Source of the DNA: Squalus acanthias
Taxonomy: Eukaryota
Reading direction: 5' to 3'
DNA: 64,000 bases
Assembly (NCBI GenBank): GCA_030390025.1
Contig: CM059432.1
Location: 82,524,001 to 82,588,000, forward strand
Every line of letters starts with the position of its first letter. The first letter of the stretch is position 1. Shown here piece after piece: positions 1,971 to 63,530 of this stretch. Under the pieces are notes generated by a model. The model worked only from the letters and a program-made list of their open reading frames with translations, did not search any database and was not told where the DNA came from. A program made the translations under genes and the position numbers.

Positions 1971-2860
1971 ACAACTTGCATTTATACTGCACCTTTAACA
2001 TAAAAATACATTCCACGGTGCTTCACAGAAGCTAAGGAAAGAAACTGATGCCGAAGCAAAGAAGGAGATATTAGGACTGACCAAATGCTTGGCCAAAGAC
2101 CTGAGATTTAATGAGAGTCTTAAACAAAAGTGAGGTAGAAAGGTAGAGGTTATGGGGTGAATTCCAGATCATGGGTCTTCGGTGGCTAAATACACAGCTA
2201 CAAATGGTGGGGTAAAGGGACAAGGATTCACAAAAGGCCAGATTCAGAAGGAGAGAGTTTGGGAGGGCTTGGGATGGATGAAGTTAGAGATGGAATGACG
2301 AAACAATGGAGGAATTCAAATACAAGGATGAGAATTTTCAATCTGAGGCATTTGGGGAGTGGGGCCAGTGTAGATCAGTGAGGGCAGGGGTGATGGGTGA
2401 GCAGAAGTTGGTGTAGGATAGGATACAAACAGCAGAGTTTTGGATGAGCTGAAGTTTATGGAGGATAGGAGGCCATTCAAGAGAGCATTGAGGGTGAAAT
2501 CCAACTTAAGCACGGCCGCAAAATGGGCGGTAGCAGATCAGCCACCATTTGATTTTCCTGCCTATTACCGGGGGGTATAACAGATGACCGATCCACTACC
2601 ACCCATTTTGTGCCCTCGCCAAAGTTGAATTTTACCCCCATTGAGTCTGGAGGTGACAAAGGCATAAATGAGGGTTTCAGCAGCATTGGGCTAAGCCAAG
2701 AATAGAGGCAGGGAATGTTAAAGAGGTGGATGCAGGCGGTCTTGTAATAGAAAGGATATGGGTTCAGAAGCTCGATTCAGGGTCAAATAGCATGCCATGG
2801 CTGTGAATTGTCTGGTTCAGCCTGAGATAGTGGCTGAGAAGGGATAGAGCCAGTGGCAAG
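1971..2860 (-). mobile_element. Degraded L2-clade LINE 3' fragment
   Basis: Starts with ACAACTTGCATTTATA, the reverse complement of the L2-type TATAAATGCAAGTTGT end also seen near 24260; purine-rich plus strand; interrupted by the MITE at 2490-2639. Confidence 0.6.
2490..2639. mobile_element. 150-bp palindromic Harbinger-like MITE
   Basis: TIR GAGGGTGAAATCCAACTT / AAGTTGAATTTTACCCCC; ATT duplicated at 2487-2489 and 2640-2642. Confidence 0.75.
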
Positions 2861-3608
2861 AGTCCAGAGTGGACAATGCCAGGCTGACCAGATACAAGTT
2901 CTAGAGATACAGCTAACATCGACACTCTCCCAGGACCAAGTCACCATGAAAGGAGAGAACATCTCAGTCCCATTGACCCTTTTGTACTACAGGAGAGCTA
3001 ACTACCTCTTGTGATGCTGGCCCTTAGGTTGTACCTTGGAGAAGTACTAGAACAGTAGAAAGAAAAGCATGTTTAGTCACCCATGGTTTTAGGGAAGGTT
3101 GGTTTGTGTTCACTTCTGAGTACCTTGTAATATTGGAGAATGTGCACTTGGTTCATACTCAAGTTATTCATGTGAACTATAGTAATACAGGAAAGGATAC
3201 ACTTATGTCGTGCTCAGAAAATGGGGCTACAGAGTTATAGCTCCAGCTCTGCTGCTGAACCTGCCACTAACCAGGCTGTAAAATAGGAGGAGCCTTGCAA
3301 AATCACCCTCATAATCCCACAATGAAACATAGTTGCAGAGCGAAGAGAAAGCCCGATTCAACATCTCTTGTTGCATGCAAAAGTTATACATACAGCAGTC
3401 AGCAGAGAGATGGAGAGTATGATCTCAATAAATTCAGTCAATACAATTGCAAACTTACTGATTAAAAAATACAGGAACAACTTAATACTGAAATATCTGT
3501 ATTTCATCCCTCACTATCCAGTATTCCATGGGACACTAAGGTTAAACAAGATAATGCACATTTGCTAATGGTAGGAAAATGTTATCTTAGCCTTTAAAAC
3601 ATTATAAT

Positions 3609-8646: not shown

Positions 8647-9355
8647 TTTTTTTTTTTAATTCGTTATTTTTAATTCATTCTTGGGATATTAACATCACTG
8701 GCAAAGTCGGCATTTATTGCCCATCCCTAGTTGCCCTTGAGAAGGTGGTAGTGGGCCTTCTTCTTGAACCACTGCTGTCCATGTAGTGAAGGTACTCCAA
8801 CAATGCTGTTAGGTAGGGAGTGATATATGTCCAAGTCAGAATAGTGTGTGACTTGGAGGGGAACTTGGAGGTGATGGTGTTCCCATGCTCCCACAGTGTT
8901 GTTGGGTAAGGAGTTCCAGGATTTTGACCCAGCGACGATGAGGGAACAGCAATATATATCAAAATCAGGATGGTGTATGACCTGGAGGGGAACTTGGAGG
9001 TGATGGTGTTTCCATGCGCCTTCTATGATGGAGGTCGCGGGTTTGGGAGGTGCTGCTGAAGAAACCTTGGCGACTTTCTGCAGTGCATCCTGTAGATAGC
9101 ACACACTACAGCCACGGTATGCCAGTGGTTGAGTCAACTGGATGTTGAAGCTGGTCAATGGGGTGCCAAGCAAGCAGACTGCTTTGTCCTGGATGGTGTT
9201 GAGCTTCTTGAGCCTTGTTGGAGCAGCACCCATCCAGGCAAGTGGAAAATATTCCATCACACTCCTGACTTGTGCCTTGTGGAGAGCTACTCGCTGCAAT
9301 ATACCCAGCCTCTGACCTGCGATAGTAGCCACAGCATTTATGTGGCTGGTCCAGG
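8647..9355 (-). mobile_element. 3' fragment of the tRNA-headed CR1/L2-group LINE family, with a small internal duplication
   Basis: Peptide AGQRLGIL...KAQVRSVMEY; 3' end GGGCAACTAGGGATGGGCAATAAATGC...polyA matches 37974-41035. Confidence 0.8.
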
Positions 9356-10566
9356 AAAACCAGGAAAGTGGAGCAGAGGTTATAAATGTATATTAGTGAA
9401 AAATATTTTTAGAATAGATATTAGAAAGAGTGATAAATGATTGGAACAATCTGCAGGCTCAGTAAAGCAAGACCATTAGCGGCATTCAAAGTGAGGCTGC
9501 ATGCTATGATGGAAGAGTCAATGCAATAGAAACCGAATGGCATCTCAGCTTTGACTTTTCTTATGTTCTGTAAGTCATACTTATTTGTACAAATGAGGCC
9601 CTACATTAGAGCCCATACTAAATATGCTTTAGGTGCAATTTGGATGGAACCCTGATCTTCTAGGTTTCCATCCTTCAGAAGTTGCCCCACAAATTGCATT
9701 CCAGTGGGTGCACACGAGTTTCTTAGGCTTGCTCCCAGTACACCACTGACTGACCTTGAGGCAAGTCTGAAGGTGTTCCACTCAGCTTGCACTTAATATG
9801 CCCCTAAAATAAAGAAAACAAAGATAATCGATCCCTGAGGAACATTCAATTCTTGTCCCTACCTCAGATTTGGGGAAGGTCCCATTATTGAAAGTCTTTC
9901 CAATTTAAATGACATAGGCTTCCCATAGTTGTGGGTAAGCCCTTAAGAGAATTCCCTCCTCAAAGTGGAAAAGCTGGTTCCCGGCCAAGAACCAGCTTTT
10001 GAGGTACGGCAACGGAATTCTCTGAATGGCCTCCTCCATGGTTTTGCGGAAGGCCCTGCTATCTAAACTGCAAAATGTTTCATAAAGGGCCTTCCCCAAT
10101 GTTGTGGGAAGGCCCTTTAATGAAATCTGCCCTGTAGTTCAATAGCCAATTCCTGAGACAAAAGGGTAAAAGACTGCCTTCCCCAAGTCATTGAGAAGCC
10201 CTTTGAGGAATCGCTGCATTCAAAAGCTGGTTCTCCATTAATGCCAGGAACTAGTTTTTGAAGTGCAGCCTGGGTCAGGCAGGCTGCCAATCAGGCCAGA
10301 GGGCATTTAGGACCCATAGGCTAGGCTATGGGGAAGGTGAGGAGCAGGGATGAATGGAGCAGGTTAGAGACCGGAGAGCAATCCAAGGAACCAGCAATGG
10401 GCTGAGGAGGACAAAGAACACAGTGCTGGGAGGAAAGCATGGAGCCATGCCACAGTACCAGCAGTGGTGAAAGACCTGCAACTGCAGCATGACATCTTAT
10501 GGTTTTAGATTTAAATTCCTATTTTAAATGTTTACATAGGCAGTTTCAATTATAATAATTGTTGAT

Positions 10567-18405: not shown

Positions 18406-21400
18406 GGACTCGATTTTTATTTCCGAGGCGGGTTGGAGTCGGGTTGCGTGGTGGGCAGGTTCCGGAGCCGCGTCCGGCGGGATCAGCTGATGATGTCCGA
18501 TTTTGATTTAATCAGCTTGTTGATTTCATTGGGGCGCGCTGGCCGGTCCAATGAGTGCGATCGGGTCGGCTGGCCGCCTCTGATGACATCATCATAGCAG
18601 CTGGCTTTAAAGCTGCCATTCAGCCTCAGCCTTTCTCTTCTGGATTCTAATACTCAGTGATATTGATCCATCCACAATGACTTCTTCCAGAGGCAAGGCA
18701 GCTCCTCGATTTAATGATGAGTCCCTCCATGCTCTTGTGGATGCTGTCAGAAGACGCAGGGAAATTCTCTTCCCTCCTGATGGCTGGAGGAAGCCTCCTC
18801 AGCAGACCAAGGCAGCCTGGCTGCGCATTGCTCAGGAGGTCAGCGCTAGGTCCATTTGTTCACGCTCATGGATCCGGTGCCGAAAAAGGTTTAATGATCT
18901 TGTGCGAACATCAAAAGTGAGTATCCCATCACACTTACCTTCAATCTGCTTCCCTTCTCTTCTCATCACCAGCACTCTGCGTTGTAAGTCTGCTCCTCCA
19001 CATACCATCTTACCCTTACTTCCCTTGCATCCTTTCCTATCCATCTCTGTCTCTGCACTGAATCACTTCAGCATCCTGCCTATGCACCCCTTAGACTCGC
19101 TCTCACTGTCATGCAGTGACAACTAACAACGCACAGGGAGCTAGCTTCCTCTTGGCACCTTACCCCATCTTCGTCTCCCTCAAAGCTTCTATGGTAGGGA
19201 TTATTCACACTCACTCCATCACTGTGGTTGAAACTCCGCTTGTGTCCCTCCTTGCAGGAAAAGATAGCCCACAATAAGAGGGAGAGAGCACTGACTGGAG
19301 GAGGTACACCTACCCTAGCAACATTGACAAGTGCTCAGGAGGCTGCATACGAAATTGCTGGAGGTGGCGAGGACCTGGAAGTGGGCGATGGAGAGACAGG
19401 CACACTAGAAGAAGCTGGTGACATAATAGAGTTTCATCCCTCTCATTAACATTTAGTGATCAACTGCAATGGCATATGATGTTCATAGAGAATTGCATTG
19501 TATCATCTGCTCAAAAGGATGTGTCTGCTACATCAGTATCAGATGTCTAAATCATGCCTTTACTCTCCCACAGTATCATCGACGCCCCCCTCCCCACGAT
19601 CCAGGACAAAGAGCCGACAACTCCTCAGAGGAACCTGAAGCCTCAGAGGGAGGAGCGTCACCAGGACTCAGCGCACCCAGCACCAGCGCAGCAACGCACA
19701 CCTCGGTGGGGCCCTCGCGAGTTAGAGTAGTGTTGCCACCTGGTCTATCACAGCGCACAAGTGAGCATCAGCAGATGGTGGAGACAGCGACAGCAGTGAA
19801 GAGTCCTCAGCGGAGGTCACAGCAATTTCCTAGCTCTGCTGAGCTGCATGTAGACGCTGTGCCTCTGCGGCCATCCAGAAAAAGAGCGTCTCATGATATA
19901 CAGGAACAAGTGCAGGTGTCTCTGGAAGGGTTTGCCTCCAGGGTTAGTGCGAGTGTGGATAGAATGGAGGAGTCCATCTCTAACATCAGCACTGCCGTGG
20001 TGGAGGCAATGGCACATGAACACACCACCATGGATAGGATGGCAACCTCCATGGATAGAATGGCACCCTCAGTGGAAAGGACGGCTACCGCCAAGGAGGA
20101 AATAAGTCACCAGAGTCAGGAAAACATGGTGACTGTTCAAAATAGAATGTCATCTCTGGAGGAGCGATGGGCAGCTATTGAGCAGAGAGACCAGAGCTTC
20201 ATGGACATCTTTGTGATGAGGACTGCCAGTGCAGATACGGGTCCTCATGGTCTCCCTGATGTGCAACAAGGTGCTCTCCAGCCACTTGCCAAAAATGAGG
20301 TGCAGCTGACCCATGAGAGGGATGTTGTTGGCAGGACACAAGGAAGTGTGGGTTCCTCTCAAAGTGCTCACACGACCATGCCACTGCGGAGCCCTCGGTC
20401 TGAGACCCACTTTGCGGAGACAACTGAGATGGCCGTTTCAGCCCCTGCACAGCCGCAGGAAGAGCAGACTGTTGAAGAGCCCTCCCAGGCTCCCAAATCC
20501 AGAGGATGCCCGCCAAAGGCGTCTAAGCAGGTGCAGCATCCTAGTCAGCAAGGTGCCTCTACATCTGCTGAAGCCACAGGGGAAGCACCATGTAGAAGCA
20601 CACGTAAGAGAAAGATTAAGCACCTATAGTCACAAGGGGACTCACGTGGGTGTTTTGTCTTTTTTTCCTGACTGTTCTTGGTTTATGATCTTTTTGTCAT
20701 GTGTAAAAGAAAAATTTTGGCAAACAGTTGATTGTGTGGCCTGTGTGTTCCGGGAAATGGCAAAAGTGCATTGAGGGCTCAGGGCGACTTGCTTTTGTAA
20801 CGCTGATGGTAAAAGTGATCGGAAATAACCAGGTATAGCAGAGATGATGTATGACGTTGGACAAATGTCGCTTACAATTACAGAGCCATATGGTAGCCAC
20901 CTATGGTTGAAGAGTAAGCTTATGCGAATGTGGCATGGCAGTGTGCATACCCTGCTTGACGGGCAACAGTGAACTGGAGGGATGCTGCATTGGTCACAAC
21001 AGGGCATGCAAGGCGCCCCTCGTCCTCCTCCTCCTCTTCCCAGGAAGATCTGCGCTGAGCCACGCGGCTGGTGCTCCTCCGATTATGAGGACCAGGATGA
21101 GAGAACATACATTTTTCCCATCCCCTTGCTAAAGATTTCATTTGAGGCAAGAAGCTTGCAAGTGCACAGTCGAAGTGGCCTGAAATTATTCCATTCAGGT
21201 CACACTGCAGATAGGTGTCGGCTTGAACAGTCACAAGGTCAGTAGATGTGCAAAATCGTATCCCATACCTACAACTGCAAAGTTGTTGCATTTGAATGAC
21301 AGCCATGTTTCAGGAGTGTTTTTAAAGCACTCCACCAATGAATACAAATCATGTCCTCCAGCAACTCGTCTCCTTGAACCTGGCCTGTTTCTGACAAGAC

Positions 21401-28818: not shown

Positions 28819-28845
28819 CTTGGCAGGGGGCACTAGCATGTAGGA

Positions 28846-30594
28846 GTGGAGGGGAGGAATGGGGTGTATGGAAACATAAAAGGGAACCCAAAAATCTTCT
28901 ACCGGCATGTAAACAGAAAGCGGGTAATAAGAGGCGGGGTGGGGCCTATTAGGGACAAAGAAGGTGATATATACTTAGAGGCACAGGGCAAGGCTAGAAT
29001 ACTCGATGAGTACTTTGTATCGGTGTTTACTAAGGAGGTGGATGCTGACAAAATATCGGTAGAAGTGGAAAAGGTAGAAGCAATGGAAGGCATGACAATT
29101 GATAGACAGGATGTACTAGAAAGACTGGGTATGCTTAGAGTGGATAAGTCGCCTGGTCCTGATGGCTTGCATCCCAGGTTGCTAAGGGAACTGGGGGAGG
29201 AGATAGCAGAAGGGCTTGCCATAATTTTCCAATCTTCCCTAGATGCGGGGGAGGTGCCTGAGGATTGGAAAGTGGCAAATGTGACGCCATTGTTCAAGAA
29301 AGGGTGTAAGGACAATCCTAGTAACTACAGGCCGGTCAGTTTAACATCAGTGGTAGGTAAAGTTTTAGAAACAATAATCAAGGAAGAAATAAATGTGCAC
29401 TTGGAGAGGTTTAAGCTAATTAAGGAGAGACAACACGGATTTGTAAAAGGCAGATCGTGTTTGACTAATCTAATTGAATTTTTTGATGAAGTAACAGGGA
29501 GGATTGATGAAGGGAATGCAATGGATGTTGTCTACATGGATTTTAGGAAGGCGTTTGACAAAGTACCACATAGAAGGCTGGTTAACAAAATTGAGGCTCA
29601 TGGAATAGGTGGATCAGTGGCAGCTTGGATAAGGAATTGGCTTAAGGACAGAAAACAGCGAGTTGTGGTAAATGGCTGTTTTTCAGACTGGAGGATGGTA
29701 GACAGTGGTGTTCCCCAAGGGTCAGTGCTGGGGCCACTGCTTTTGTTGATATATATAAATGACCTGGATATTGGAATACAGAGTAGAATTTCAAAATTTG
29801 CTGATGACACCAAACTTGGGGGTGTGGCAAACAGTGATGATGATACCAATTGACTGCAACAGGACATAGCAATGCTAGCAGAATGGGTAGACAAGTGGCA
29901 GATGGAATTTAATACAGAGAAGTGTGAGGTGATGCATTTTGGCAGAAGGAACAGGGAGAGGCAATATACACTTAATGGCACAGTTTTAAAGAGTGTGCAG
30001 GGACAGAAGGACCTGGGAGTTAATATGCTTAGGTCCCTGAAGGTGGTGGGACATATTAAGAGAGTGGTTAGCAAAGCATATGGGATCTTTGGCTTCATAA
30101 ATAGAGGTATTCAGTACAAAAGTAGAGAAGTTATGCTGAACCTTTATAAAGCGCTGGTTAGGCCACAACTGGAGTATTGCGTCCAGTTCTGGTCACCACA
30201 ATTTAGGAAGGATGTGAAGGAACTTGAGAGGGTGCAGAGGAGATTTACCAGAATGGTCCCAGGAATGGGGGATCTTAGCTACAAGGACAGGTTGAAGAAG
30301 CTGGATTTGTTTTCATTAGAGCAAAGGAGGTTGAGGGGTGATTTGATAGAGGTGTACAAGATTCTGACAGGTTTGGATAAGCTAGACGGGGAAAGGCTGT
30401 TCCCACTAGTTGGTGGTACAAGGACTAGGGGACACAGATTTAAGGTTTTGGGAAAGAGATACAGGGGGGATGTGAGGAAAAACTTTTTTACGCAGCGAGT
30501 GGTGAGGACCTGGAACTCGCTGACGACGGAAGTGGTGGAAGCGGAGACACTCAATGTTTTCAAGGGGAGATGGGATAGGCACTTGAGGAAATAA
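28846..30594 (+). pseudogene. CR1 ORF2 reverse transcriptase, one internal stop at 29851-29853
   Basis: [32 protein letters not shown] and KFADD motifs. Confidence 0.9.
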
Positions 30595-31471: not shown

Positions 31472-32248
31472 CCTTTTTTTATTTAATTTTTTATTCATTT
31501 ATGAGATGTGGGTGTCGCTGGCAAGGCCAGCATTTATTGCCCATCCCTAATTGCCCTTGAGAAGGTGGTGGTGAGCCGCCTCTTGAAACGCTGCGGTCCG
31601 TGTGGTGAAGGTACTCCCACAGTGCTGTTAGGTGGGGAGTTCCAGGATTTTGACCCAGCGACGTTGAAGCATCGGCGATATACTTCTAAGTCAGGATGGT
31701 GTGTGACTTGGAGGGGAACTTGGAGGTGGTGGTGTTCCCATGCCTCTGCTGCCCTTGTCCTTCTAGGTGGAAGAGGTCACGGGTTTGGGAGGTGCTGCCG
31801 AAGAAGCCTTGGTGAGTTGCTGCAGTGCATCTTGTAGATGGTACACACTGCAGCCACGGTACACCGGTGGTGGAGGGAGTGAATGTTTAAGGTGGTGGAT
31901 GGGGTGCCAATCAAGCGGGCTGCTTTGTCCTGGATGGTGTCGAGCTTCTTGAGTGTTGTTGGAGCTGCACTCATCCAGGCAAGTGGAGAGTATTCCATCA
32001 CATGCCTTACTTGTGCCTTGTAGATGGTGGAAAGGCTTTGGGGAGTCAGGAGGTGAGATACTCTCCGCAGAATACCTAGCCTCTGACCTGCTCTTGTTGC
32101 CACAGTATTTATGTGCCTGGTCCAGTTAAGTTTCTGGTCAATGGTGACCTCCAGGATGTTGATGGGGGATTCGGTGATGGTAATACCGTTGAATGTCAAG
32201 GGGAGGTGGTTAGACTCTCGCTTGTTGGAGATAGTCATTGCCTGGCAC
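31472..32248 (-). mobile_element. 3' fragment of the tRNA-headed LINE family
   Basis: Closely similar to 37974-38550, including the polyA-terminated tail. Confidence 0.85.
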
Positions 32249-32309
32249 GTTTTTGATTTGATTTGATTGAAAGTCCCATGCTAGTGTTTGGGTTAAGTGC
32301 AGTCCTAAG

Positions 32310-35300
32310 AATAACCTTGTAGTAAAGGAGCCTCTGGGGAATAGTGATCATAATATGATAGAATTTTATGTTGAGTTTGAGAGTGATTTAGTTAAGTCCG
32401 AAACTAGGGTCCTAAACCTGAACAAAGCAAACTACGTAGGTATTACAGGTGAGTTGGCTAAGGTAGGTTGGGAAACTAGATTAAAAGCAATGGCAAACAT
32501 TTAAAGAAATAATTCATAATTCGCAACGAATATACATTCCCTTAAGGAATAAAAACACCATGGGAAAAATGGTCCAACCCTGGCGACCAAGAGAAATTAA
32601 AGATAGTGTTAGATTAAAGGAAGAGGCTTATAATGTTGCCAAAAATAGTAAGCCTGAGGATTGGGAGGATTTTAGAATTCAGCAAAGGAGGACCAAGAAA
32701 TTCATAAAGAAAGGGAAAATAGAACGAGAGTAAACTAGCGAGAGTCATAAAAACAGACTGTAAAAGTTTCTATAGGTATGTAAGAAGGAAAAGATTAGCA
32801 AAAGTAAGCGTAGGTCCCTTATAGGCTGAGACAGGAGAAATTATAATGGGGAATAAGGAAATGGCAGGGAAATTAAACAAATACTTTGGGGGCAATTTTA
32901 CCAGCACTCAGAGTGCAGGTTTGGAGGCGGGTCCGCCATCAAAATCACAAAGGGTCTGTCATCCCTGAACAGACCCGACACCAATTTAGATACTTAAAAG
33001 CTTGTTAAAAGGTAGTTAAGCAGAATTTTCCCATGTACTTACCATTTTACCAGGTTTTTAACGAGGTTCCCAGAGAGCGGGGATCACGTCAGGTAAGTAT
33101 GTCGGGTTCTCAATGACTCTCCATTGCTGTGAATAGGTGACAGCTGCAAAAGTGGTATAAAACCTACCATTTCACAACTGTTCACTTCCCAATCTTTGAA
33201 GCTGGAGCCTTCAGGATTTGGAACCCACTTTTGAGGTTTATGCAGTTTAGAAGTGTTTGGAGTAAACTCTCTATCCAGTGTCACCTCCTTGGAGCAACCT
33301 CTCTCACCATTGACAGATCGCTTCTGTCATCTCAACTTCAGCTGCCATCTATTCCAGCAACATCGGTGCCCTTGAAAAAAATCTCACCTTGGTCCTCCGA
33401 ATCCCACCATGATCAGCCCCAACACGAACATCACCAGGCACACCAGCACCACCAACAACAATACCAACCTTCTCCGCAATCACCTGATGCTGCACACGAC
33501 ACAAGGCATCAGCACCCAACCACACTGCTGCCCAGGATGCCAGCGATGGCCTCACCATGGCCAGATTTACTTCACTTGACACTGTACACCCTGGCTGCCA
33601 CATGATGCGCCAGGTTGGCACCCGCCCACACCAGCACCATAAAGCATCCCTACAAAGTCCAAGCCATTCCTTTCATACTCGTCACCGTTGAGGGGGCGGA
33701 GGGTACCCTTATGTCTCACAATTCACTGCAATTCACTAAGCCACTTCCAACGGTGCACACAAATCTGTCCAAGAACGCAAAGTGTTGAAAATAAAGATTT
33801 CAATGTTTGACAGCACATTACCAGAAACTTCAAATGAACATTGGCTAAACCACCCAAGTACCTACTCTTGTGTGTTCTTAGTTGGTATGCTTGCAGTAGG
33901 ATGAGAGTGAGTGTGAGGGGTGGCTAGTGAGATGAGGAAGTGATAATGTAGATAGAGAGGGATGGGTGGAGGTGCAAGGTAAGTTGGTGTGAGTAAAGAT
34001 TTGCAGGTATAGGGTAGGGAAGGCAGACTGATGGGGATGTGATGAATGGCACAGCAGGATGAGGCTGAATGTAGCTTTGCAGTAACCTTTTGTGATCTAC
34101 TGAGATCATTGAAAGGTTTGCGCCACTGCAGCCAGGTCCTCCTGACAACATTCCTGCTTGTGCCCTCCTGTGCAATATGCAACCAGGCTGCGTTGGTCTC
34201 CTGGGGAGGTCTCTTCCGCCCATTGGAAGGGAAGAGAACCTCCCTGCGTATTGTGACTCCCTCCATAAGCATATGGAGCAAGTCATGGGAGAGTCTGGGT
34301 GCAGCCCTGCACCTTTGTGCAGTACTTGTCAGTGTTTGCAGCACCTCAATGCTGTAGAACACTCACAGCACAACTGTCAATATGATTCTGGACATGGCCC
34401 CTTTAAGGAAACCGACTGATCATGCGTCATCAAATGACTTAATCAGACCCGCTTCCTTTTAATTAGCCGGGAACCTTGCAGGGCGGGCTTAACAAGCCCT
34501 ATCGATGGAAAACTCTTCTCACAGAGTGGGATGGAGCCGGGAGCGGGGTCGCCGTCTGGCACCTATCTCGGCCGCACTTAGCCTGCCTCAGTAGGCGAAA
34601 TCACGGCCTTTTTGTCTGTCTTCACGGAAGAAGAAGCAAAAAACCTCCCGGAAATAGTGCAGAACAAGGGTCCAGCGAAAATGAGGAACTGAAAGAAACT
34701 AATATTAGTGAAAAAATTTATGGGACTGAAAGCCGATAAATCCCCTGGACCTGATGGCCTTCATCCTAGTGTTTTAAAAGAGATGGCTATAGAGATAGTG
34801 GATGCATTGGCTGTCATTTTCCAAAATTCCATAAATTCTAGAACGGTTCCTGCGGATTGGAAGGTAGCAAATGTAACCCCACTATTTAAGAAAGGAGGGA
34901 GAGAGAAAACAGGGAGCTACAGACCAATTAGCCTGACATCAGTAGTAGGGAAAATGCTAGAATCTATTAAGGACGTGGTAACAGGGCACTTGAAAATAAT
35001 AATAGGATTGGGCAGAGTCAACACGGATTTATGAAAGGGAAATCGTGTTTGACAAATCTGTTGGAGTTTTTTGAGGTTGTAACTTGCAGGATAGATAAGG
35101 GGGAACCAGTGGATGTGGTGTATTTGGATTTTCAGAAGGCATTCGCTAAGGTGCCACACAAGAGTTTATTAAGCAAAATTAGGGCTCATGGGATTGGGGT
35201 AATATACTAGCATGGATTGAGTATTGGTTAACGGACAGAAAACTGAGAGTAGGAATAAATGGGTCATTTTTGGGTTGGCAGGCTGTGACGACTGAGGTAC

Positions 35301-37450: not shown

Positions 37451-37973
37451 CAATGGCACAACAATCACTACATGCTGTGCAAACCCCTAGCCCATATTTT
37501 TAATAGCTCACTGCACTCTGGAACGGTTCCCGTAGACTGGAAGGAGGCTGATGTAGTCCCCACCTTGAAAAAAGGTGACAAGACGGACCTGGGTAACTAT
37601 AGGCCCATTAGTCTGACATCAGTAACAGGGAAGATGCTTGAGGAAATCATTAGTGATGCAATATATGATTGCTTGGATAGAGAGGGTCATATTAGGGACA
37701 CCCAACATGGTTTCATAAAACAGTCATGTCTTACAGATCTGATTGTAATTTTTAAAATGTCACCAAGATGGTGGATGAGGGAAGTCCAGTCGGGATTGTC
37801 TACTTAGACTTCCAAAAAAAACCTTTGATAAGGTACTGCACAAGAGACTTCTCTACAAGATTGAAGCCTCTGGTATTATTGGTAATATATTGAGCTGGAT
37901 TGAGAACTGGCTGGAAGGACTTAGGCAAAAAGTAGTTATAGATGGATTTGGATCAGTTTGGAGACCAGTGGTG

Positions 37974-40900
37974 TTTTTTTTATTCGTTCATGGGATGTGG
38001 GCGTCACTGGCAAGGCCAGCATTTATTGCCCATCCCTAATTGCCCTTGAGAAGGTAGTGGTGAGCCGCCTTCTTGAACCGCTTCAGTCCGTAGTCCGTGT
38101 GGTGAAGGTACTCCAATAGAGCAGTTCCAGTATTTTGACCCAGCGACGATATACTTCCAAGTCAGGATGATGTGTGACTTGGAGGGGAACTTGGAGGTGG
38201 TGGAGTTCCCGTGTGCCTTCTGCCCTTGTCCTTCTAGGTGGTAGAGGTCGCGGGTTTGGGAGGTGCTGACGAAGAAGCCTTGGTGAGTTGCTGCTATGCA
38301 CACTCCTTACTTGTGCCTTGTAGATGGTGGAAAGGCTTTGGGGAGTCAGGAGGTGAGACACTCGCCACAGAATACCTAGCCTCTGACCTGCTCTTGCTGC
38401 CACAGTATTTATGTGGCTGGTCCAGTTAAGTTTCTGGTCAATGGTGACCCCCAGGATATTGATGGTGGGGGATTCGGCGATGGTAATGCCGTTGAATGTC
38501 AAGGGGAGGTGGTTAGAGTCTCGCTTGTTGGAGATAGTCATTGCCTGGCACTTCTGTGGTGCAAATGTTACCTGCCACTTATCAACCCAAACCTAAATGT
38601 CATCCAGGTCTTGCTGCATGCGGGCATGGGCTGCATCATAATTTGAGGAGTTGCGAATGGCACTGAACACTGTGCAGTCATCAGCGAACATCACCACTTC
38701 TGACTTTATGATGGAGGGAAGGTCATTGATGAAGCAGCTGAAGATGGTTGGGCCTAGGACACTGCCCTGAGGAACTCCTGCAGCGATGTCCTGGGGCTGT
38801 GATGATTGACCTCCAACCACCACAACCATCTTCCTTTGTGCTAAGTATGACTCCAGCCAGTGCAGAGTTTTTCCCCCCGATTCCCATTGACTTCAGTTTT
38901 ACTATGGCTCCTTGATGCCACACTCAGTCAAATGCTGTCTTGATGTCAAGGGCAGTCACTCTCACCTCACCTCTGGAATTAAGCTCTTTTGTCCATGTTT
39001 GGAACAAGGCTGTAATGAGGTCTGGAGCTGAGTGGTCCTGGAGGAACCCAAACTGAGCATCACTTACTGGTGAGTAAGTGCTGCTTGATAGCACTGTCGA
39101 CGACACCTTCCATCACTTTGCTGATGGTTGAGAGTAAACTGATGGGGCGGTAATTGATCAGATTGGATTTGTCCTGCTTTTTGTGGACAGGACATACATG
39201 GGCAGTTTTCCACATTGTTGGATAGATGCCAGTGTTATAGCTGTTCTGGAACAGGTTGGCTAGAGGCTAGTTCTGGAGCACAAGTCTTCAGCATGACAGC
39301 CAGGATGTTGTCGGGGCCCACCGCCTTTGCTGTATCCAGTACGCACAGCCATTTCTTGATATCACATGGAGTGAATCGAATTGGCTGAAGACTGGCTTCT
39401 GTGGTGGTGGGGACCTCAGGAGGAGGCCGATATGGATCATCCACTCGGCACTTCTGGCTGAAGAGGTTGCAAATGCTTCGGCTTTGTCTTTTGCACTCAC
39501 GTGCTGGGCTCCACCATCATTGAGGATAGGGATATTCATGGAATCTCCTCCTCCCGTTAGTTGTTTAATGGTCCACCACCATTCACGACTCGATGTGGCA
39601 GGACTGCAGAGCTTTGATCTGATCCGTTGATTATGGGATCGCTTAGCTCTGTCTATAGCATGCTGCTTCCACTTTTTAGCATGCATGTAGTCCTGTGTTG
39701 CAGCTTCCCCAGGTTTTAGGTACGCCTGGTGCTGCTCCTGACATGCTCTTCTACGCTCCTTATTGAACCAGGGTTGGTCCCTTGGCTTGATGGTAATGGT
39801 AGAGTGAGGGATATGCCGGGCCATGAGGTTACAGATTGTGGTGGAATACAATTCTGCTGCTGTTGATAGCCCACAGCGCTTCATGGATGCCCAGTTTTGA
39901 GCTGCTAGATCTCATCTGAATCTATCCCATTTAGCACGGTGGTAGTGCCACACAACATGATGGAGGATGTCCTCAGTGTGAAGATGGGACTTTGTCTTCA
40001 CAATGACTGTGCGGTGGTCACTGCTACCAATGCTGTCATGGACAGATGCATCTGCGACAGGTAGATTGGTGAGGACGAGGTCAAGTAGGTTTTTCCCTCG
40101 TGTTGGTTCTCTCACCACCTGTCGCAGGCCCAGACAGGCAGCTATGTCCTTCAGGACTCAGTCAGTAGTGGTGCTACCGAGCCACTCTTGGTGATGGACA
40201 TTGAAGTCCCCCACCCAGAGTACGTTCTGTGCCCTTGCTACTCTCAGTACTTCTTCCAAGTGGTGTTCAACATGGAGGAGTACTGATTCATCAGCTGAGG
40301 GAGGGCAGTAGGTGGTAATCAGCAAGAGGTTTCCTTGCCCATGCTTGACCTGAAGCCATGAGACTTCATGGGGTCCGGAGTCAATGTTGAGGACTCCCAG
40401 GGCCACTCCTTCCCGACTATATACCACTGTGCCACCACCCCTGGTGGGTCTGTCCTGCCGGTGGGACAGGACATACACAGGGATGGTGATGGAAGAGTTT
40501 GGGACATTGGCTTAAAGGTATGATTCTGTGAGTATGAATATGTCAGGCTGTTGCTTGATTAGTCTGTGGGACAGCTCTCCCAATTTTGGCACAAGTCCCC
40601 AGATGTTGGTGAGGAGGACTTTGCAGGGTCGACTGGGTGTGCCGTTGTCGTGTTCGTAGCCGGTGCCGAGTGGTCCGTCTGGTTTTCTTCTTATTGTTTT
40701 TCGTAGCGGTTTATTACAACTGAGTGTTTTTCTAGGCCATTTCAGAGGGCAGTTAAGAGTCAAACCTCATTGCTGTGGGTCTGGAGTCACATATAGGCCA
40801 AACCGGGTAAGGACGGCAGATTTCCTAAAGGTCATTAGTGAACCAGATGGGTTTTTAATGACAATCCGATAGTTTCAAGGTCACCATTACTGATACTAGC

Positions 40901-41035
40901 TTTTTATTCCAGATTTATTTAATTAACTGAATTTAAATTCCCCAGCTGCCGTGGTGGGATTTGAACTCACGTCTCTGGATCATTAGTCCAGGCCTCTGGA
41001 TTATTAGTTCAGTAACATTACCGCTATGCTACCGA
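37974..41035 (-). mobile_element. Apparently full-length CR1/L2-group LINE with tRNA-like 5' head, single EN-RT ORF (degraded) and polyA tail
   Basis: APE motifs (LLTNIWGL, LTESYL, VGDFNVHH, SSDH); RT motifs ([15 protein letters not shown]); A/B boxes at the 5' end; 3' AATAAAAAAAA. Confidence 0.9.
40957..41031 (-). promoter_or_regulatory. tRNA-type internal Pol III promoter (A box and B box)
   Basis: A box TAGCATAGCGG (41031-41021) and B box GTTCAAATCC (40966-40957) on the minus strand. Confidence 0.7.
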
Positions 41036-41629
41036 TCCCACAGGAATCATTGCTGAGACCGTTGCTCTTTATTATTTTTAATTAATGGTCTAGATGTAGG
41101 TGTTGGGGACACGATCTGCAAATTTGCAGATGATACTAATATCTGTGCGAGTGTTAGGACTGCAGATGATGCTCGAAGGCTTCAGGTTGATTCTGATGTA
41201 CTGGGAGATTGGCCTCATGACTGGGAAATTATGTTTAATTTAGAAATGTGCAATATTATGCATGTGGGAAGGGTGAATGTTCAACATACACACACCCTTC
41301 AGGGAAAAGCATTAAAGCAGGTGGCGAAAGAAAGAAATCTGGGCATTCTAGTGCAAACATCTCTAAAGGTACATAAGCAATGCCATGAAGTGATAGCTAG
41401 AACGAAGAGAGTGTTGGCATGCATTCATCGGACAATTGATTATAAGACGAGGCATACTATTTTGTCCTTGCACAAGACCTTGGTCAGGCCTCACTTGGAA
41501 TACTGTTTTGGTCTCATCACATGGTGGGTGATATAGAGGTTCTGGACAGGGTGTAGAGGAGGGCCACTAGACGAATTCCCATTATAAAGCAATAGTTATC
41601 AAGATAGGCTAAAAGAGTTGGGACTCTAC

Positions 41630-50560: not shown

Positions 50561-50678
50561 AATCAAAGGCACGAACCAGTAGGTTATCCTCCACAGCACA
50601 ACTTATTGGAGCATTCTTACTCTGATCTACTTTGAGAACTTGAAGTTGGCCGATGGCTGCTGTACATTTGTCACTTAC

Positions 50679-51573
50679 CCAAGTATAGAGATGCGTTCTC
50701 TGTTTTGACATTATCGTCCAGGTAGGTGGGCCCCAGGGTGTAAATGGGTGTGGAGCCCACGCCTATGAGGAACTGGGCGCAGACAAAAAGAGCCACATAG
50801 AGCGAGTGTTGATGGCTGGAAGAGTCCTTGTTGGCACAGCCGGAATCCGAGTCTCTGCCCCCGGTGCCATTGCCGGCGCTGCACAGCCCCTGGTTGGAGG
50901 CGGACCTGTTCAACTCCTGGATCTGATGCGGGGGGGAGATGAAATGCGGCAGGGTGAACAGAGCGGCTCCGACTGCGATGAAAAGACCGCCCACGGCCAA
51001 CCAGCGGGGTCTGCGCCCTCGACCCCCGAAGTAACTGATAAAAACCACCACCAGCAAGCTGCCGATGTCGAAGCAGCTGACCAGGAGCCCGGACTCGGAG
51101 CTCTTCAGGTTGTACCTCCTCTCCATGGTGGTGATGACGCTGCTGAGGTAGCCGGACACCATGAGGGACTGGATGAAAGTCAGGCAACACATGCAGAGGA
51201 GGAAACACCTGGAGTCGCCGAGCACCAGCCCCGGGCAGCGGCTGCCCAGCCGGCCGGCACAGGCAGGTCGGGGCGACCAACAGCCCGGCTGGGCGGCTGA
51301 GGGCGGCGAGCCGCCTCCTGAGCCCGATTTCCAGCTCCTGGGCACCGGCTGCCCGCTGCTCGGCGAGGCTGTGGAGGAAAACGCTGCCGCCGAGGTGCTC
51401 TTGGTGGGAGTCAGCTCCGATTCCCGGGCTCCCGGCGACGACAAGTCCCAACCATTTAAAGCGGGCAAACTTTTGCATTTGAAATGCTCGCCCGGCTGCT
51501 GTGTAGCGGCGGCCGCCGACTGCTGCTGGCCGCTGATGTTAGCAGCACCTTCCAGGACTGAGTTTGAAGCCAT
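50679..51573 (-). CDS. SLCO5A1: Solute carrier organic anion transporter family member 5A1 (OATP5A1), first coding exon
   Basis: [52 protein letters not shown]...YFGGRGRRP...[16 protein letters not shown]...SLYL matches OATP5A1 as recalled; Kozak CCACCATGG; phase-1 donor G|GTAAGT at 50679/50678; no downstream exon recognised in the window. Confidence 0.93.
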
Positions 51574-52400
51574 GGTGGTGGTGATGATGATGGTGATCCG
51601 CGATCAGAGAGTTCACTCCTCCCGAAATAATTGCATTCAAATCCAAAACAGTGCTGCCCCGGTTAACGGGAGCGAAGGGCTAGGAAGTGCCCGGGACTGC
51701 CGGGCGCGCTGACTGACAGCTCCAGGGACCAGCAGAGTGTCTGCAGGGACATCGCGCGGGAGCGCTCCTCACACCGCCAGCACCAGCACCAGCCGCTCTC
51801 GCCAGAACAACCCTCTCAAGGCGCCGGCCGCAGCATTTGCACAGATGTCGGTGGACAGGACGTGCGAGGGAGGCTGTGCAACTGGCGCGGTGTCCATAAC
51901 CTCTGCGGGAACCAGCAGTGCTCCCGCCGGCGAGAGCCAGCATTAACCACACTCACTCACTCACTCACACACTCAGTGATCCAGGGGGGGTGGGGGAAGC
52001 CGGCCCCCGCCGCCAGCAAGTGCAGTCTGGCGATTGTAGTCTTCGCAGCACTTGTCAGTTCTGAGGGAGGAAGAAATGCCTCTGACCGCTGGTCGATGCA
52101 CGCACCACACAGGAGCTGGACAAGAATGGCGCCCTGCTTTTTATTTATTACTATTTATAATGATTTCGGGTTTCTGTGGCGCTGTTGCTGGCCGGATGCT
52201 AAGCATCAGTCAACTACATTTCCCAGAACCGTGCGCGTCCCGCCGGCCACAAGGTCGCCAACAGTCCGGCTCCGCGAGTCTATATTTGTCTTTAAATATG
52301 TTTTCATAATCCAAGCACATTTCTCCACCAGTGTACTCATTCAGCCTGTGAATAACCAGGGGCGACCGCCAGCGTTCCAGCTAAAATGTCCACGAGCGCA
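50750..52400. promoter_or_regulatory. CpG island over the SLCO5A1 start and upstream region
   Basis: High GC and CpG density in TE-free sequence, contrasting with CpG-poor flanks. Confidence 0.7.
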
Positions 52401-54229: not shown

Positions 54230-55909
54230 GGGTTGAATTTTGCGGGGGGTCAGCGGGCACGATCGATGGTGGGTCAGGCGGGAAAATGTTTTTTTGACTG
54301 CAGGTCGGGACCCCGCTGTCAACCCGCCGCCACGCACCTTTCCCAAATGTCGGGTCTGCCAGCGCTGAGCAAACCCAACACGCAGTGGCGGGGGAGGCAA
54401 TTGAAATCAACAAGCCACTTAACAACTTTTTCCCAACTTTTTGATTTTGACAGGTTTCCCACTGTGCCTAGACCTTGTCAGTGAAGCTGAGGTGGGAGGT
54501 GACTTGCCATTCTTTCAGTTGATGAGTTGACAGCTTCAAATGTCAAGTCAAAGCTCCCAGCTGAATCAGATACCTTCCCTTAGCCACTAGCTTCTCTATA
54601 CTGCATTTCTACTACAGATTCACCACGCTGCAAGTCTTTACACAAGTCTCCATCCAGTCTGACCTCATTACCTCTCCCACCATTGACAGATCGCTTCTGT
54701 CATCTCTACTTCACCTGCCATCTATTCCATCAGCACCGGTGCCCTTGAAACTATCTCACCTTGGTCCTCAGAATCCCACCACAATCAGCCCCAACACCAG
54801 CAGCACCAACAACACCAACCTTCTCCGCAATCACCTGATGCTGCACAGGACATAGGGCATCAACACCCGAGCACATTACTGCCCGGGATGGCCTCACCAT
54901 GGCCAGATTTACTTCACTTGATGCTGTACACCCTGGCTGCCACACGATGCGCCAGGTTGGCACCAACCCACACCAACACCATAAAGCATCCCTACAATGC
55001 GCAAGCCATTCCTTTCACACTCCTCACCAGTGCAGGGGATACCGTTATGTCTCACTATTCACTGTAACTCATTAAGCCACTTCCTAAGGTGCACACAAAT
55101 CTGTCCAAGAACGCAAAGTGTTGAAAATAAAGGTTTCAATGTTTGACAGCACATTATCAGAAACTTTACATGAACATTGCACAAAATATCCAAGTGCCTA
55201 CCCTTGTGCTTTGCTAGTTGGTATGATTGCACTAGGATGAGGGTGAGTGTGAGGGGTGGCTGGTGAGATGGGGAAGTGATAATGTAGATAGAGAGGGATG
55301 GGTGGAGGTGCAAGATAAGTTGGTGTGAGTAAGGATATGCAGGAGTAGGGTAGGGAAGGCAGAGTGATGGGGATGTGATGAGTGGCACAGCAGGATGAGG
55401 TTGAGTGTGGCTTTGTACTAACATTTCGTGATCTACTGATATCATTGAAAGGTTTGCGCCACTGCAGTCTGGTCCTCCTGACAACATCACTGCTTGTGTC
55501 TTCCTGTGCAATGTACAACCAGGCTGGGGAGGTCTCTTCTGCCCATTGGAAGGGAAGAGAACCTCCCTGCATGCTGTGGAGGGAGTCATGGGAGAGCCTG
55601 GGTGCAGCCGTGCACCTCTGTGCAGTGCTTGTCAATGTTTGCAGTACCTCAATGCTGTAGAACACTGAAAGCACAAATGTTAAAATCAATTTGCGCATGG
55701 TCCCTTTAAGGAAACTGGCTGACGACGCATCATCAAATGACGTCATCAGACCCACTTCCTTCAATTGGCCGGCAAACGCGCTGGGCAGGCTTAACAAGCC
55801 CAATCAGGGGAAAATCATTTTGGACAGCAGGCTGGAGCCGGCAGCGAGGCCGGGACCCGTCACTAATGTCGTCCGCCACAGACCCGCCGAGGTTGGTAAA
55901 ATCCAGCCC
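54230..55909 (-). mobile_element. 1.7-kb non-autonomous Harbinger element with Myb-like exon 1
   Basis: TIR GGGTTGAATTTT / AAAATCCAGCCC; TSD AAT/AAC; core homologous to 32888-34608. Confidence 0.85.
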
Positions 55910-57044: not shown

Positions 57045-58578
57045 ATCAGCTGTGGTCAGTTGGTAGCACTCTCGCCTCTGAGTTCAGAGGTTGTGGGTTC
57101 AAGTCCCACTCCAGAGACTTAAGCACAAAAATCTAGGCTGACACTTCAGTGTACTGCTGAGGGAGTGTCGGAGTTGCCATCTTTTGGATGAGAAGTTAAA
57201 CCGAGATCCTGTCTGCTCTCTCAGGTGGATGTAAAAGATCCCATGGCACTATTTCGAAGAAGAGCAGGGGAGTTATTCTTGGTGTCCTGGCCAATATTTC
57301 TCTTCTTCTTCTTAGGCAGTCCCTCGGAACCGAGGATGACTTGCTTCCACATTAAAAATGGGTTCTCAGGTGACTGATGAGCCCAATGCGGGACCTACAG
57401 TCTCTGTCACAGGTGGGGCAGACGGTGGTTGAAAGGGCGGGTGAGTGGGGTGCTTGGGTTGATGTGCGCTCCTTCCGCTGTTTGCGCTTGGTTTCTGCTT
57501 GCTCCCGGCGAAGAGACTCGAGGTGTTCGACGCCTTCCCAGATGCTTCTCCTCCACTTTGTGCGGTCTTGATCCAGGGATTCCCAGGTGTCAATGGGGAT
57601 GTTGCACCTTTTCAAGGAGATTTTGAGGGTGTCCTTGAAGCATTTCCTCTGCCCACCTGGGGATCTCTTGCCGTGTCAGAGCTCCGAGTAGAGCGCTTGT
57701 TTTGGGAGTCTCGTATCGGGCATGCGGACGATGTGACCCATCCATCGGAGCTGATCGAGCGTGGTCAAAGCTTCAATGCTGGGGATGTTGGCCTGAGCAA
57801 GAATACTGACGTTGGTGTGCCTATCCTGCCAATGGATTTGCAGGATCTTGCGGAGGCAGCGTTGGTGGTATCTCTCCAGTGCTTTGAGGTGCCTGCTGTA
57901 CATGGTTCATGTCTCTGAGGCATACAGCTGGGCAGGTATCACTGCTGCTCTGTAGACCATGAGCTTAGTGCCCGGTTTGAGGTCCTGGTCTTCAAACACT
58001 CTCTTCCTCAGGCGACCGAAGGCTGCACTGGCACACTGAAGGCGGTGTTGGACTTCGTCATTGATGTCTGCCCTTGTTGACAGTAGGCTCCCGAGGTATG
58101 GAAAGTGGTCCACGTTGTCCAAGGCCTTGTCGTGGATTTTGATAATCGGGGGCCAGTACTGTGTGGCGGGGGCAGGTTGGTAGAGGACCTTTGTCTTACG
58201 GATGTTTAGTGTAAGGCCTATGCTCTCATATGCTTCGGTGAAGGTGTTGATGATGGTTTGGAGTTCGACCTCCGAGGGAGCGCAGACGCAAGCGTCGTCT
58301 GCATAATATAATTCGACGACAGAGGATGGGACGACCTTGGATCTGGACTGGAGGCGACGTGGCCAATATTTATCCCTCAATCAACATCACAAAAAAAAGA
58401 TAATCTGGTCATTATCATATTGCTGTTTGTGGGACCTTGCTGTGTGCAAATTGGCTGCTGCGTTTCCTACATTACAACAGTGACTACACTCCAAAAGTAC
58501 TTAGTTGGCTGTGAAGCACTTTGGGACGCCCTGAGGTCATGAAAGGCGCTCTATAAATGCAAGTCTTTCATTCTTTCT
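57045..58578 (+). mobile_element. Deu-domain SINE split by an RTE insertion
   Basis: Same family as 44968-45428; B box GGTTCAAGTCC; halves at 57045-57299 and 58360-58578. Confidence 0.85.
57300..58359 (-). mobile_element. 5'-truncated RTE-clade LINE
   Basis: ELYYADD...GLTLNIRKTKVL peptide; C-terminal CPTC...HLRTH; (AAG)n tail; 12-bp TSD TGGCCAATATTT at 57288-57299 and 58360-58371. Confidence 0.92.
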
Positions 58579-61159: not shown

Positions 61160-62670
61160 AAACGATAGAGAAGATTGGAAAATTATGGCAAGCCCTTCCG
61201 CTATCTCCTCCCCCAATTCCCTTAGCAATCTGGGATGCAAGCCATCAGGACCAGGCGACTTATCCACTCTAAGCATACCCAGTCTTTCTCGTACATCCTG
61301 TCTATCAATTTTCACCCCTTCCATTGCTTCTACCTTTTCCACTGCTACCAATATTTTGTATTCTAGCCTTACCCTGCGCCTCTAAGCATATAACACCTTC
61401 TTTGTCGCTAATAGACCCCACCCCGCCTCTTACTACCCGCTTACTGTTTACATGCCGGTCGAAGATTTTTGGGTTCCCTTTTATGTTAACTGCCATTCTA
61501 CTCTCATATTCTCTCTTTGCCAATCTTATTTTCATCTTCACTTCCCCTCTCAACTTATTGTATTTGGTCTGGCTCTCCCTTGAAGAATTCACCTGACATG
61601 CATCATACACCCTCTTTTTTTGTTTCATCATCTTCACTATCTCCCTCGTCATCCAAGGAGCCCTTGCTTTGGTTCCCTTACCCTTCCCTCTTGTTGGAAT
61701 GTACCTAGCCTGTACTTGGAACATCTCCTCCTTAAAGATCACCCATTGTTCCATTGCAGTTTTTCCTGTCAGTCTTTGGTTCCATTTTACCCTGGCTAGA
61801 TCCTTTTGCATCCCATTGAAGTTAGCCCTATTCCAGTTTAGAATTTCCACTCTAGACTGTTCCTTGCTCCTCTCCATTGCTAATCTAAATCTTATGATAC
61901 GATGATCACTCGTACCCAAGTGTTCTCCCACAGACAATTGGTCGACCTGGCCCACCTCATTCCCCAGCACCAGATCCAGCAATGCCCCCTTCCTAGTTGG
62001 GCCAACAACATATTGGTCAAAGAAATTCTCCTGAACACATTTCAGCAATTCCTCCCCCTCCTTTCCCTTTACCCTAGCATTATCCCAATCGATATTGGGT
62101 AATTAAAGTCCCCCAATATTACCACTCTATAGCTCTTGCATATCTCTGCGATTTCCCTGCAGATTTGCTCCTCTACCTCCCTCTCACTATATGGAGGCCT
62201 ATAGAATACCCCCAATAGTGTGATCATACCCTTTTTGCTCCTCAACTCTAACCAAATGGATTCTGTCCTTGTCCCCTCAAGAATATCCTCCCTTTCCAAC
62301 ATTACAATGTCTTCCTTAATCAGCACTGCCACCCCACCTCCCTTTTTTCCTTCCCTATCTTTTCTGAACACCTTGTACCCTTGAATATTAAGTGCCCAGT
62401 CCTCACCATTTTTAAGCCACGTTTCCGTTATTGCCACAACATCATATTGCCACACGGCTAATTGTGCTTGTAGCTCACCAACCCTATTCACCACACTTTG
62501 TGCGTTTACATACATGCATTCTAAATCCATTTTTGAATTTTTCGTAGTCTTTCTTAGTCTGCTCCTATCTAATATGGTACTACTTCCCCCTCTAGTACTA
62601 CTTTCTTCTCTAGTACTATCCAACACACTCACACTTTCATGCACCTTGTTCCTCTTTTCTACTCCTATAT
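61160..62670 (-). mobile_element. CR1 ORF2 5' part (endonuclease and linker)
   Basis: YVNAQS, ITETW, ILGDFN and SDHR motifs; same subfamily as 27500-30712. Confidence 0.92.
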
Positions 62671-63530
62671 GCTGGTGGTTGAGAATGTTACACATTCCCT
62701 ACAACTAAGCTTTCAGAAGCCTGATTTTCTTTTCCAATACTGCCTCTTTTTCCTTTCCTCTCTTGAAAGTGCTGCCTCTTATGGTTCCATGAGTGCCGAC
62801 AGCCCTCAGATTCCTAACTGTGCCCTCATCTAATGTCCACATACTTACAGGAGCGATCAAGAGTGGAAACTCTGATTGATTTTGTCGTCTCTAATCCAGG
62901 TGTGATGATGCCAATTACAGCAAGGATTCTCAACCTTTTTGCTTCTGAGGCCCCCCCGCCACCCCCCACCCCCCACCCCGTGTTATAAAAGTTCTACGAA
63001 CTCCCTGTAACACAGCACAAGTATCTTTTTTGTATTAAAATTAGTTATACAATTAAACATATCTATTTATTATTATTTTTGTTTGACTTAATGTGAAACA
63101 TTACACATTACGTAAAAATGGAACATATTAACTTTTGCGCTATCAGCATGTAATAAGCACACCAACCAGGGATGGGCATAAATGCCAGCCTTGCCCACAT
63201 CCCAAGAATCAAAATATATATTAAAAATATCCCAGCCCTCACCTATAAGTGAGTAAAGCATAATACCCCAACCTCAAATGGGCGAATATATCATCAGATA
63301 CCCCACATGGACAAGCAAAGCATCAGATACCCCAGGTGGGTGAACAAAGGATCAGATACCCCAACCCCTTTTGAAGAAATGTTGCCTGCTCTTCCTGTAG
63401 ATGTTGACTGGCCTGCTGTTTTCCAGTATGTGTACTGTTGAAGTCATTTGCTTTTTACCTCCCTATGAAGGGGACGCTTTGGTAAGACATATTGTGAACC
63501 TGTACCACATTCATTCCCAGTTCTAGGGAG

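Follow-up and report, generated by a model that had tools for sequence, protein, structure and literature searches.

LINEs and SINEs are kept apart as coding elements transcribed by RNA polymerase II (Pol II) and non-coding elements that RNA polymerase III (Pol III) transcribes. According to PMC5786205, LINEs are normally Pol II transcripts while SINEs are stated to be unable to encode protein, and the SINE2 model adds a tRNA head to a non-coding derivative. Compact single-ORF elements of the CR1 group are known, so a missing ORF1 is not special (PMC6740152). Zenon of Lepidoptera is such an element, with a length of about 3.3 kb, a single endonuclease-reverse transcriptase (RT) ORF, an A tail and abundant internally deleted derivatives made of its 5' and 3' ends; the SIDE Persaeus, one of these, has no tRNA homology and no Pol III promoter (PMC6740152). 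R2 and L1Tc are single-ORF LINEs thought to be translated from uncapped RNA, and R2 is a site-specific Pol I co-transcript released by an HDV-like ribozyme that also yields SIDEs (PMC6765202). The T+ SINEs B2, Dip and Ves end in AATAAA, a variable T run and a short A tail (PMC8466645). In cartilaginous fish, the tRNA-headed SINEs of the pairs SacSINE1/L2-2_CM (PMC5499810) and HE1/HER1 (PMC3747384) are described as sharing a tail, and only a tail, with their LINE.

The LINE family described here came to attention through one copy in a 64,000-nt stretch of the Squalus acanthias genome (the window). Its elements consist of a tRNA-like head, a body of about 240 nt, a single frame of 970 codons for endonuclease and RT, a 3' stem-loop and a short A tail. 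With a tRNA head in front of an ORF under selection, the family breaks the division outlined above, and the arrangement suggests that a protein-coding element may be transcribed by Pol III. The family resembles Zenon and Persaeus in all the respects listed, except that both the shark LINE and its derivative open with a tRNA head; Zenon was compared by description only. The shark derivatives of 440-490 nt have the head, body and LINE-type 3' tail of SINE2 elements, including those on bipartite RTE or Vingi LINEs, whereas in the shark a coding, selected LINE bears the head as well (PMC5786205). Under the Pol III reading the family would be like R2 in being made by a polymerase other than Pol II; unlike R2, its head gives no Rfam ribozyme match and is retained in the copies (PMC6765202). 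The likeness to T+ SINEs is a resemblance only, as the shark AATAAA lies inside the 3' stem-loop and most tails have a minimal T run (PMC8466645). SacSINE1/L2-2_CM and HE1/HER1 are set apart from the family by their description and not by sequence. A literature search lying outside Repbase, Dfam and subscription journals, where the family may be annotated, found no description of a protein-coding LINE with a tRNA head, nor did the passages of PMC4824008, PMC4494074 and PMC4016481; the SINE of the family may already figure in published supplements.

Anatomy of the copy in the window

The initial annotation had described a minus-strand LINE that starts with an A box and a B box, reaches its AP endonuclease after about 400 nt with no room for ORF1, and ends with an RT and an A tail. 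All of these elements were located (Table 1). The A box was read at 41031-41021 and the B box at about 40966-40957, and the PCKV codons of the endonuclease start at 40628, 410 nt from the 5' end of the copy (41038). The FADD motif of the RT lies at 38688. The copy is dead: its frame is broken by 5 premature in-frame stops and by several frameshifts, and 171 nt are deleted near 38300. Amplification of the family, which had been claimed from fragments elsewhere in the window, was borne out by the three additional pieces in Table 1.

Table 1 Position of the tRNA-headed LINE copy, its parts, its insertion target and its relatives within the window
Feature	Position	Strand	Basis or remark
Whole tRNA-headed LINE copy	37974..41038	-	decayed; 95.5% identity to family consensus
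tRNA-derived head	40953..41038	-	sub-threshold Rfam tRNA match and shared 5' end at other loci
A box TAGCATAGCGG	41021..41031	-	read from sequence
Tandem duplication of anticodon-arm segment between A and B boxes, period 21 nt	40973..41012	-	sequence; taken by Rfam as an insertion
B box GTTCAAATCC	about 40957..40968	-	read from sequence
Conserved 5' body, common to SINE derivatives	40714..40952	-	upstream AUGs present, none reaching the ORF
Arg-rich N-terminal extension of ORF, without AUG	40629..40713	-	frameshifted in window copy; old-versus-young codon changes
AP-type endonuclease domain, approximate boundaries	40000..40628	-	Pfam PF14529 and PF03372 on natural sister copies
Reverse transcriptase domain, approximate boundaries	38510..39200	-	Pfam PF00078, E 1e-28 on sister copy L009
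Stop codon (38038-38036) and 3' UTR stem-loop	37982..38038	-	AATAAA (38027-38022) in internal loop
A8 tail, preceded by a single T in window copy	37974..37981	-	sequence
Older ordinary CR1, left part (insertion target)	37475..37973	+	
Older ordinary CR1, right part (insertion target)	41039..41536	+	about 3 codons lost at site
5'-truncated copy, same family	31487..32253	-	96.5% identity to consensus nt 2536-3301
5'-truncated copy, older subfamily	8664..9359	-	74-79% identity to consensus; tail of old type
Isolated decayed tail fragment	about 63164..63215	+	motif search; missed by blastn

No target duplication was found around the window copy, which sits instead at a small target deletion. Its CR1 flanks rejoin as one RT frame with about 3 codons missing; therefore, head and body were inserted as a single unit. 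The same picture could arise if a SINE had reached the 5' end of this single LINE copy by insertion or template switching, and SINEs with the same head are abundant. The clean rejoining of the flanks speaks against such an accident, and it is already refuted by the same junction at dozens of loci whose flanks are unrelated, as well as in an older subfamily, so that we assign it a negligible probability.

The tRNA-derived head is shared by the family

A first look at the 3.7 Gb genome yielded 32,380 candidates for the element and 5,210 for the head, of which 40 were scored in each search; neither figure is a copy number. A consensus built from 39 copies is 3306 nt long with a single 970-codon frame starting at nt 328. 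Among 29 loci picked by the head, 27 continue into the ORF and 2 are head-plus-tail deletions; 27 also begin sharply at nt 1-3 with unrelated flanks. The head-LINE junction thus recurs in independent copies, as the reading of the initial annotation requires. When 29 loci were picked by the endonuclease instead, 9 reached nt 1-3 (one via an insertion) and 20 were truncated, 13 within the 5' region and 7 at nt 352-552, and inspection of 30 flanking nt revealed no alternative shared 5' end among the 29. The tail was reached in 16 of 20 extended loci. Of these 20, 14 had been picked for looking long; of the unselected remainder, 4 of 6 were full length. Dispersed 5'-truncated copies with a common 3' end form a truncation series. 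Target-site duplications were not convincing in any of 16 full-length copies; they are often absent in the CR1/L2 group, and their lack is not counted against LINE membership. Contigs assembled from four sequencing runs contained head-to-tail joints in 4/4 cases, although such contigs show no start, strand or level of transcription.

The junction is old as well as family-wide. In the older subfamily the head is joined to the same ORF start: 15 of 21 copies recovered with a junction query were old-type, 10 reaching nt 60 or less, and three of the 15 resemble duplicates of one insertion. Three old-type loci (L263, L266 and L268; G000 C26, 6.7-7.5 Mb) have a common internal deletion from nt 770 to 1972, either through local duplication or as an amplified deletion derivative. 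The nearest among named proteins are exonised pieces found in Heptranchias, Pristiophorus, Heterodontus, Scyliorhinus and Rhincodon, which indicates that the family spans several shark orders. Pieces of the family ORF lie within annotated shark gene models (P0001, P0002, P0010, P0014, P0017, P0018, P0022, P0063 and P0067), where they are exonised or mis-annotated. Two old 3' fragments used as queries retrieved no close relatives, just matches of 71-84%; a scan of viral contigs gave no match, and an Atlas search returned generic RT clusters only.

Similarity of the head to tRNA is weak by score. The Rfam tRNA match at 40953-41032 reaches 22.3 bits against a cut-off of 29 (E 0.04), and family heads score 22-26 bits, all under that cut-off. 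Rfam likewise yields no match to a ribozyme, such as the HDV-like one that heads R2, L1Tc and RTE elements. ARAGORN called no tRNA in the window, head included; nor did it find one in 40 metagenome loci with distant relatives (0/40), a weak result given that it misses the shark head too. The family 5' end lies 7 nt ahead of the A box, which matches the +1 position of a mature tRNA. One 21-nt unit of the anticodon-arm duplication is absent in some copies. Between the consensuses of the old and young subfamilies the B box is unchanged and the A box differs at two degenerate positions only, a comparison of limited power, since the first 100 nt hold no more than about a dozen differences. The fold of head plus body is not unusually stable (z -0.2).

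By AP endonuclease and RT in one ORF, dispersed truncated copies and a selected ORF, the family belongs with LINEs. It also carries the tRNA-derived head with A and B boxes that marks SINE2 elements, of which the short non-coding form is seen only in its deletion derivatives. The 327 nt ahead of the frame hold no ORF1, so the ORF1-ORF2 order of canonical vertebrate CR1s is lacking; the upstream ORF is also absent in several distant relatives. A quick 79-row tree, which contained no labelled clade references, placed the family beside compact proteins of 900-990 aa and apart from ordinary shark CR1s, and the nearest named non-shark protein is from Branchiostoma (41%). From its motifs and this tree we take the family to be CR1 group, of an amphioxus or invertebrate-type lineage. 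It is a real and unusual LINE variant, for which the Pol III reading is plausible from its sequence.

Selection on the ORF and the missing start codon

To characterize the ORF, non-CpG variants were counted over 109 distinct copies. Variants common to at least 12% of copies comprised 31 nonsynonymous and 37 synonymous changes and 0 stops, as compared with 1456, 449 and 79, respectively, among private variants. This difference indicates that the source lineages needed the protein and that the ORF evolved under purifying selection.

The unusual initiation route envisaged by the initial annotation agrees with the codons observed. The first in-frame Met is residue 284, past the endonuclease, and no AUG stands in frame before the RT linker. 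Of the 35 codons ahead of the endonuclease, those from about nt 373 onward, at least, are coding: in the ORF frame, 9 of 15 N-terminal changes between old and young subfamilies are synonymous, three CGG/AGG swaps included, whereas the other two frames have 1 of 12 and 2 of 14 (P 0.013 for the ORF-frame excess). Several related proteins have a similar basic N-terminus that opens with a predicted Met. Within the family we found neither an AUG nor a conserved near-cognate codon with an open path into the ORF. The out-of-frame ATG at nt 357 was rejected as a start, since a large proportion of copies read ATA there and the old subfamily lacks it; the ACG at nt 337 is not conserved, and the conserved TTG just upstream of it is followed by TAA in the young subfamily. 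Because the nearest ATG is out of frame, polymorphic and missing in the old subfamily, ordinary cap-scanning fails with any polymerase. The lack of an AUG ahead of an N-terminus conserved as coding points to non-AUG initiation, and whichever polymerase makes the RNA, initiation is, on these codons, non-canonical. The 5' body was also considered as the seat of a structured entry site or a pseudoknot; this was rejected for want of excess stability, and no compensatory changes between the old and young 5' consensuses were seen by eye.

T runs on the sense strand

The initial annotation had reported no AAAA on the plus strand across the copy, hence no sense-strand TTTT (T4), and had read this as a purge of Pol III terminators. 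The gap is real: the plus strand is AAAA-free from 37932 to 41304, the longest such stretch in the window, the next longest measuring 1804 nt. On its sense strand the window copy has 0 T4 and 18 A4 runs, the family consensus 0 T4 and 7 TTT, and 109 copies (256 kb) contain 34 scattered T4 runs. In the old-subfamily consensus a single T4 is called, at a T/A boundary that is unstable and where 9 of 10 copies have T3. As proof of Pol III transcription, the T4 count was rejected. Expected T4 counts for the family consensus are 3.9 with a mononucleotide null (P 0.019), between 1.4 and 1.9 with dinucleotide and codon nulls (P 0.10-0.20) and 1.1 with a codon null conditioned on CpG (P 0.28), so that the lack of an internal terminator is not significant alone; in addition, an RTE copy without a tRNA head in the same genome is T4-free for 3217 nt. 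The old, family-wide head and the selected ORF speak for an autonomous SINE-LINE hybrid; the T4 argument is weaker than first put, and a T4 absence expected from composition, which the initial annotation had listed as refuting its reading, partly applies.

Avoidance of T runs survives in other statistics. TTT is the most depleted trinucleotide of the family. Under the CpG-conditioned codon null, which is the valid one since the initial codon-junction statistic (z -4.2) was inflated by CpG loss at codon junctions, T|T across codon junctions occurs 8 times against 17.8 expected (P 0.001), TTT 5 times against 9.4 (P 0.028) and windows with T at 4 of 5 positions once against 4.2 (P 0.044). Pooled shark control ORF sets (n=11) show no effect (odds ratio 0.96, against 0.42 for the family). 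Milder T avoidance occurs in three ordinary CR1 sets (P 0.013-0.03; odds ratios of 0.48 and 0.52 among them), and the odds ratio is as low as 0.46 in 1 of 21 distant relatives. Between 3 and 49 T4 runs occur in every one of the 21 distant relatives with long ORFs. The signal is real but moderate.

Other LINEs of the genome (40 fragments, 46 kb) carry 3.8 T4/kb with a TT observed/expected ratio of 1.12, compared with 0 T4 and 0.70 in the family. Ordinary CR1s had been described as rich in sense T runs, which is correct on average and does not extend to a CR1 endonuclease part at 61305-62698 (minus strand), whose roughly 1.4 kb hold no sense T4 (3.0 expected, P 0.013). The stretch at 28837-30591, apparently the RT part of the same CR1 family, has 12 T4. 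The Phe codons that the initial annotation had checked in the RT core, those of IFSCF and FADD, are indeed TTC; across the consensus, TTT makes up 3 of the 18 Phe codons. A compact T-poor LINE family without a tRNA head, presumably RTE-type by its motifs, occurs at L131:500-4100 (G000 C4 near 140.02 Mb) and at window 57304-58359 and makes a useful control. The RTE family overall has about one T4 per fragment, a TT observed/expected ratio of 0.99 and 12 T|T against 12.4.

These figures bear on a conventional reading in which Pol II would transcribe the LINE from an internal promoter in the 5' region, the captured tRNA head would be transcriptionally minor, composition or some other constraint on the RNA would account for the T-poverty, and the short forms would be SIDEs like Persaeus. 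The non-significant absence of T4 and the RTE control, nearly T4-free through composition, fit it, as do the normal use of Pol II by LINEs (PMC5786205) and the amplification, without a Pol III promoter, of a deletion derivative of Zenon, itself a 3.3 kb single-ORF CR1 (PMC6740152). It leaves unexplained the TT avoidance beyond codon use, of which the RTE control shows none, as well as the exact tRNA +1 start and the intact boxes in both subfamily waves; moreover, even a capped RNA would have no usable AUG. We consider Pol II transcription of this kind doubtful.

A model for transcription and translation

Early in shark evolution, an autonomous single-ORF LINE acquired a head derived from a tRNA, which became its own 5' end and has been kept since. 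The polymerase, cap status, initiation route and termination of the LINE RNA are inferred here from the DNA, and events would run as follows. TFIIIC and Pol III would use the internal A and B boxes and start at the first G of the head, and Pol III would read through the 3.3 kb T-run-poor body, stopping once it meets a T run, either at the 3' end or beyond it. The same uncapped RNA would be translated without an AUG, with entry into the frame at about nt 328-373, and the protein would bind the 3' stem-loop and insert the RNA via target-primed reverse transcription. Stem-loop binding at the 3' end and target-primed reverse transcription are established for stringent LINEs. Synthesis of the copied full-length RNA by Pol III is, in our judgment, probable. 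The complete proposal is put forward tentatively, with a little short of even confidence: Pol III would make a 3.3 kb mRNA from a promoter of tRNA type, translation of this uncapped mRNA would begin at a non-AUG codon, and the element would be an autonomous SINE-LINE, persistent across shark lineages, from which simple deletions repeatedly give SINEs. The translation of an uncapped, non-Pol II LINE RNA has a precedent in R2, which counts in its favor (PMC6765202), while the processivity of Pol III, held to restrict SINEs to 100-700 bp, counts against the Pol III reading (PMC10886601). The uncapped-translation proposal is also weakened by the 5' region, where no stable structure or covariation was found to serve as an entry site.

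Alternatively, Pol III may make the copied RNA, with a protein that is supplied by another transcript class (a processed RNA, or Pol II transcripts that read through from a host promoter or intron) and acts on the Pol III RNA via the 3' stem-loop. Such a division of labor would fit all the Pol III signs and avoid translation of a 5'-triphosphate RNA, and the protein plainly acts in trans on the SINE forms. Selection on the variants of amplifying lineages is simplest if the copied RNA supplies its own protein, and neither an AUG nor a splice route into the endonuclease frame is seen. We regard two RNA sources as improbable. With its selected ORF behind a tRNA head, the family lends itself to asking, in a natural system, whether Pol III is able to produce a long RNA that is translated, and how translation of a 970-residue protein begins when AUG is lacking.

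The 3' end was analyzed in the same manner. The tail of a sister copy folds with z -2.66, and 4 of 200 shuffles fold as well. Over 58 distinct tails, the T run before the A tail is 1-11 long, with 1-2 T in 48 of them; this variable run, judged without a control, is no more than suggestive of a terminator remnant. L098 and L111, two unrelated full-length copies, end in T10-11 followed by an identical 8 letters where an A tail would stand.

SINE derivatives and further observations

Head-plus-tail SINE forms are known for both the old and the young wave. An old SINE query retrieved 20 loci, every one of them of the head-plus-tail form and joined near nt 339 and 3194, and 17 of them are old-type with a consensus of 440 nt. 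When 20 loci were picked by the old head alone, 17 were head-plus-tail, 2 were old-type copies running into the endonuclease and 1 was a young LINE. Diagnostic letters are common to the old LINE and old SINE and, likewise, to the young LINE and young SINE, while young deletion derivatives differ in their breakpoints. The headed LINE thus appears to give rise to SINEs again and again. An internal deletion that spares head, body and tail would yield a SINE at once, because the promoter is already in place; the structure of these forms is observed, and its derivation from the LINE is the probable direction. This would be a direct route of SINE birth, one deletion from a headed LINE, taken in two subfamily waves. 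At L220:789-1290, an old-type head and body are followed by a different repeat, one resembling a Deu-type SINE, directly upstream of a truncated young LINE.

Several other features were also recorded. The window contains a large coding exon at 50671-51603 (minus strand) within a CpG-rich stretch, which we take to be from an organic-anion transporter of the SLCO type. Elsewhere in the genome, L133-L136 (G000 C6 near 80.0 Mb) consist of long tandem arrays of 5-8 kb together with simple repeats. Repeated ORF pieces at 18611-20629, 33862-34362 and 55059-55803 of the window, which we assume to carry a Myb/SANT-like motif, probably belong to a DNA-transposon family, and the plus strand is free of TTTT from 18505 to 20652.
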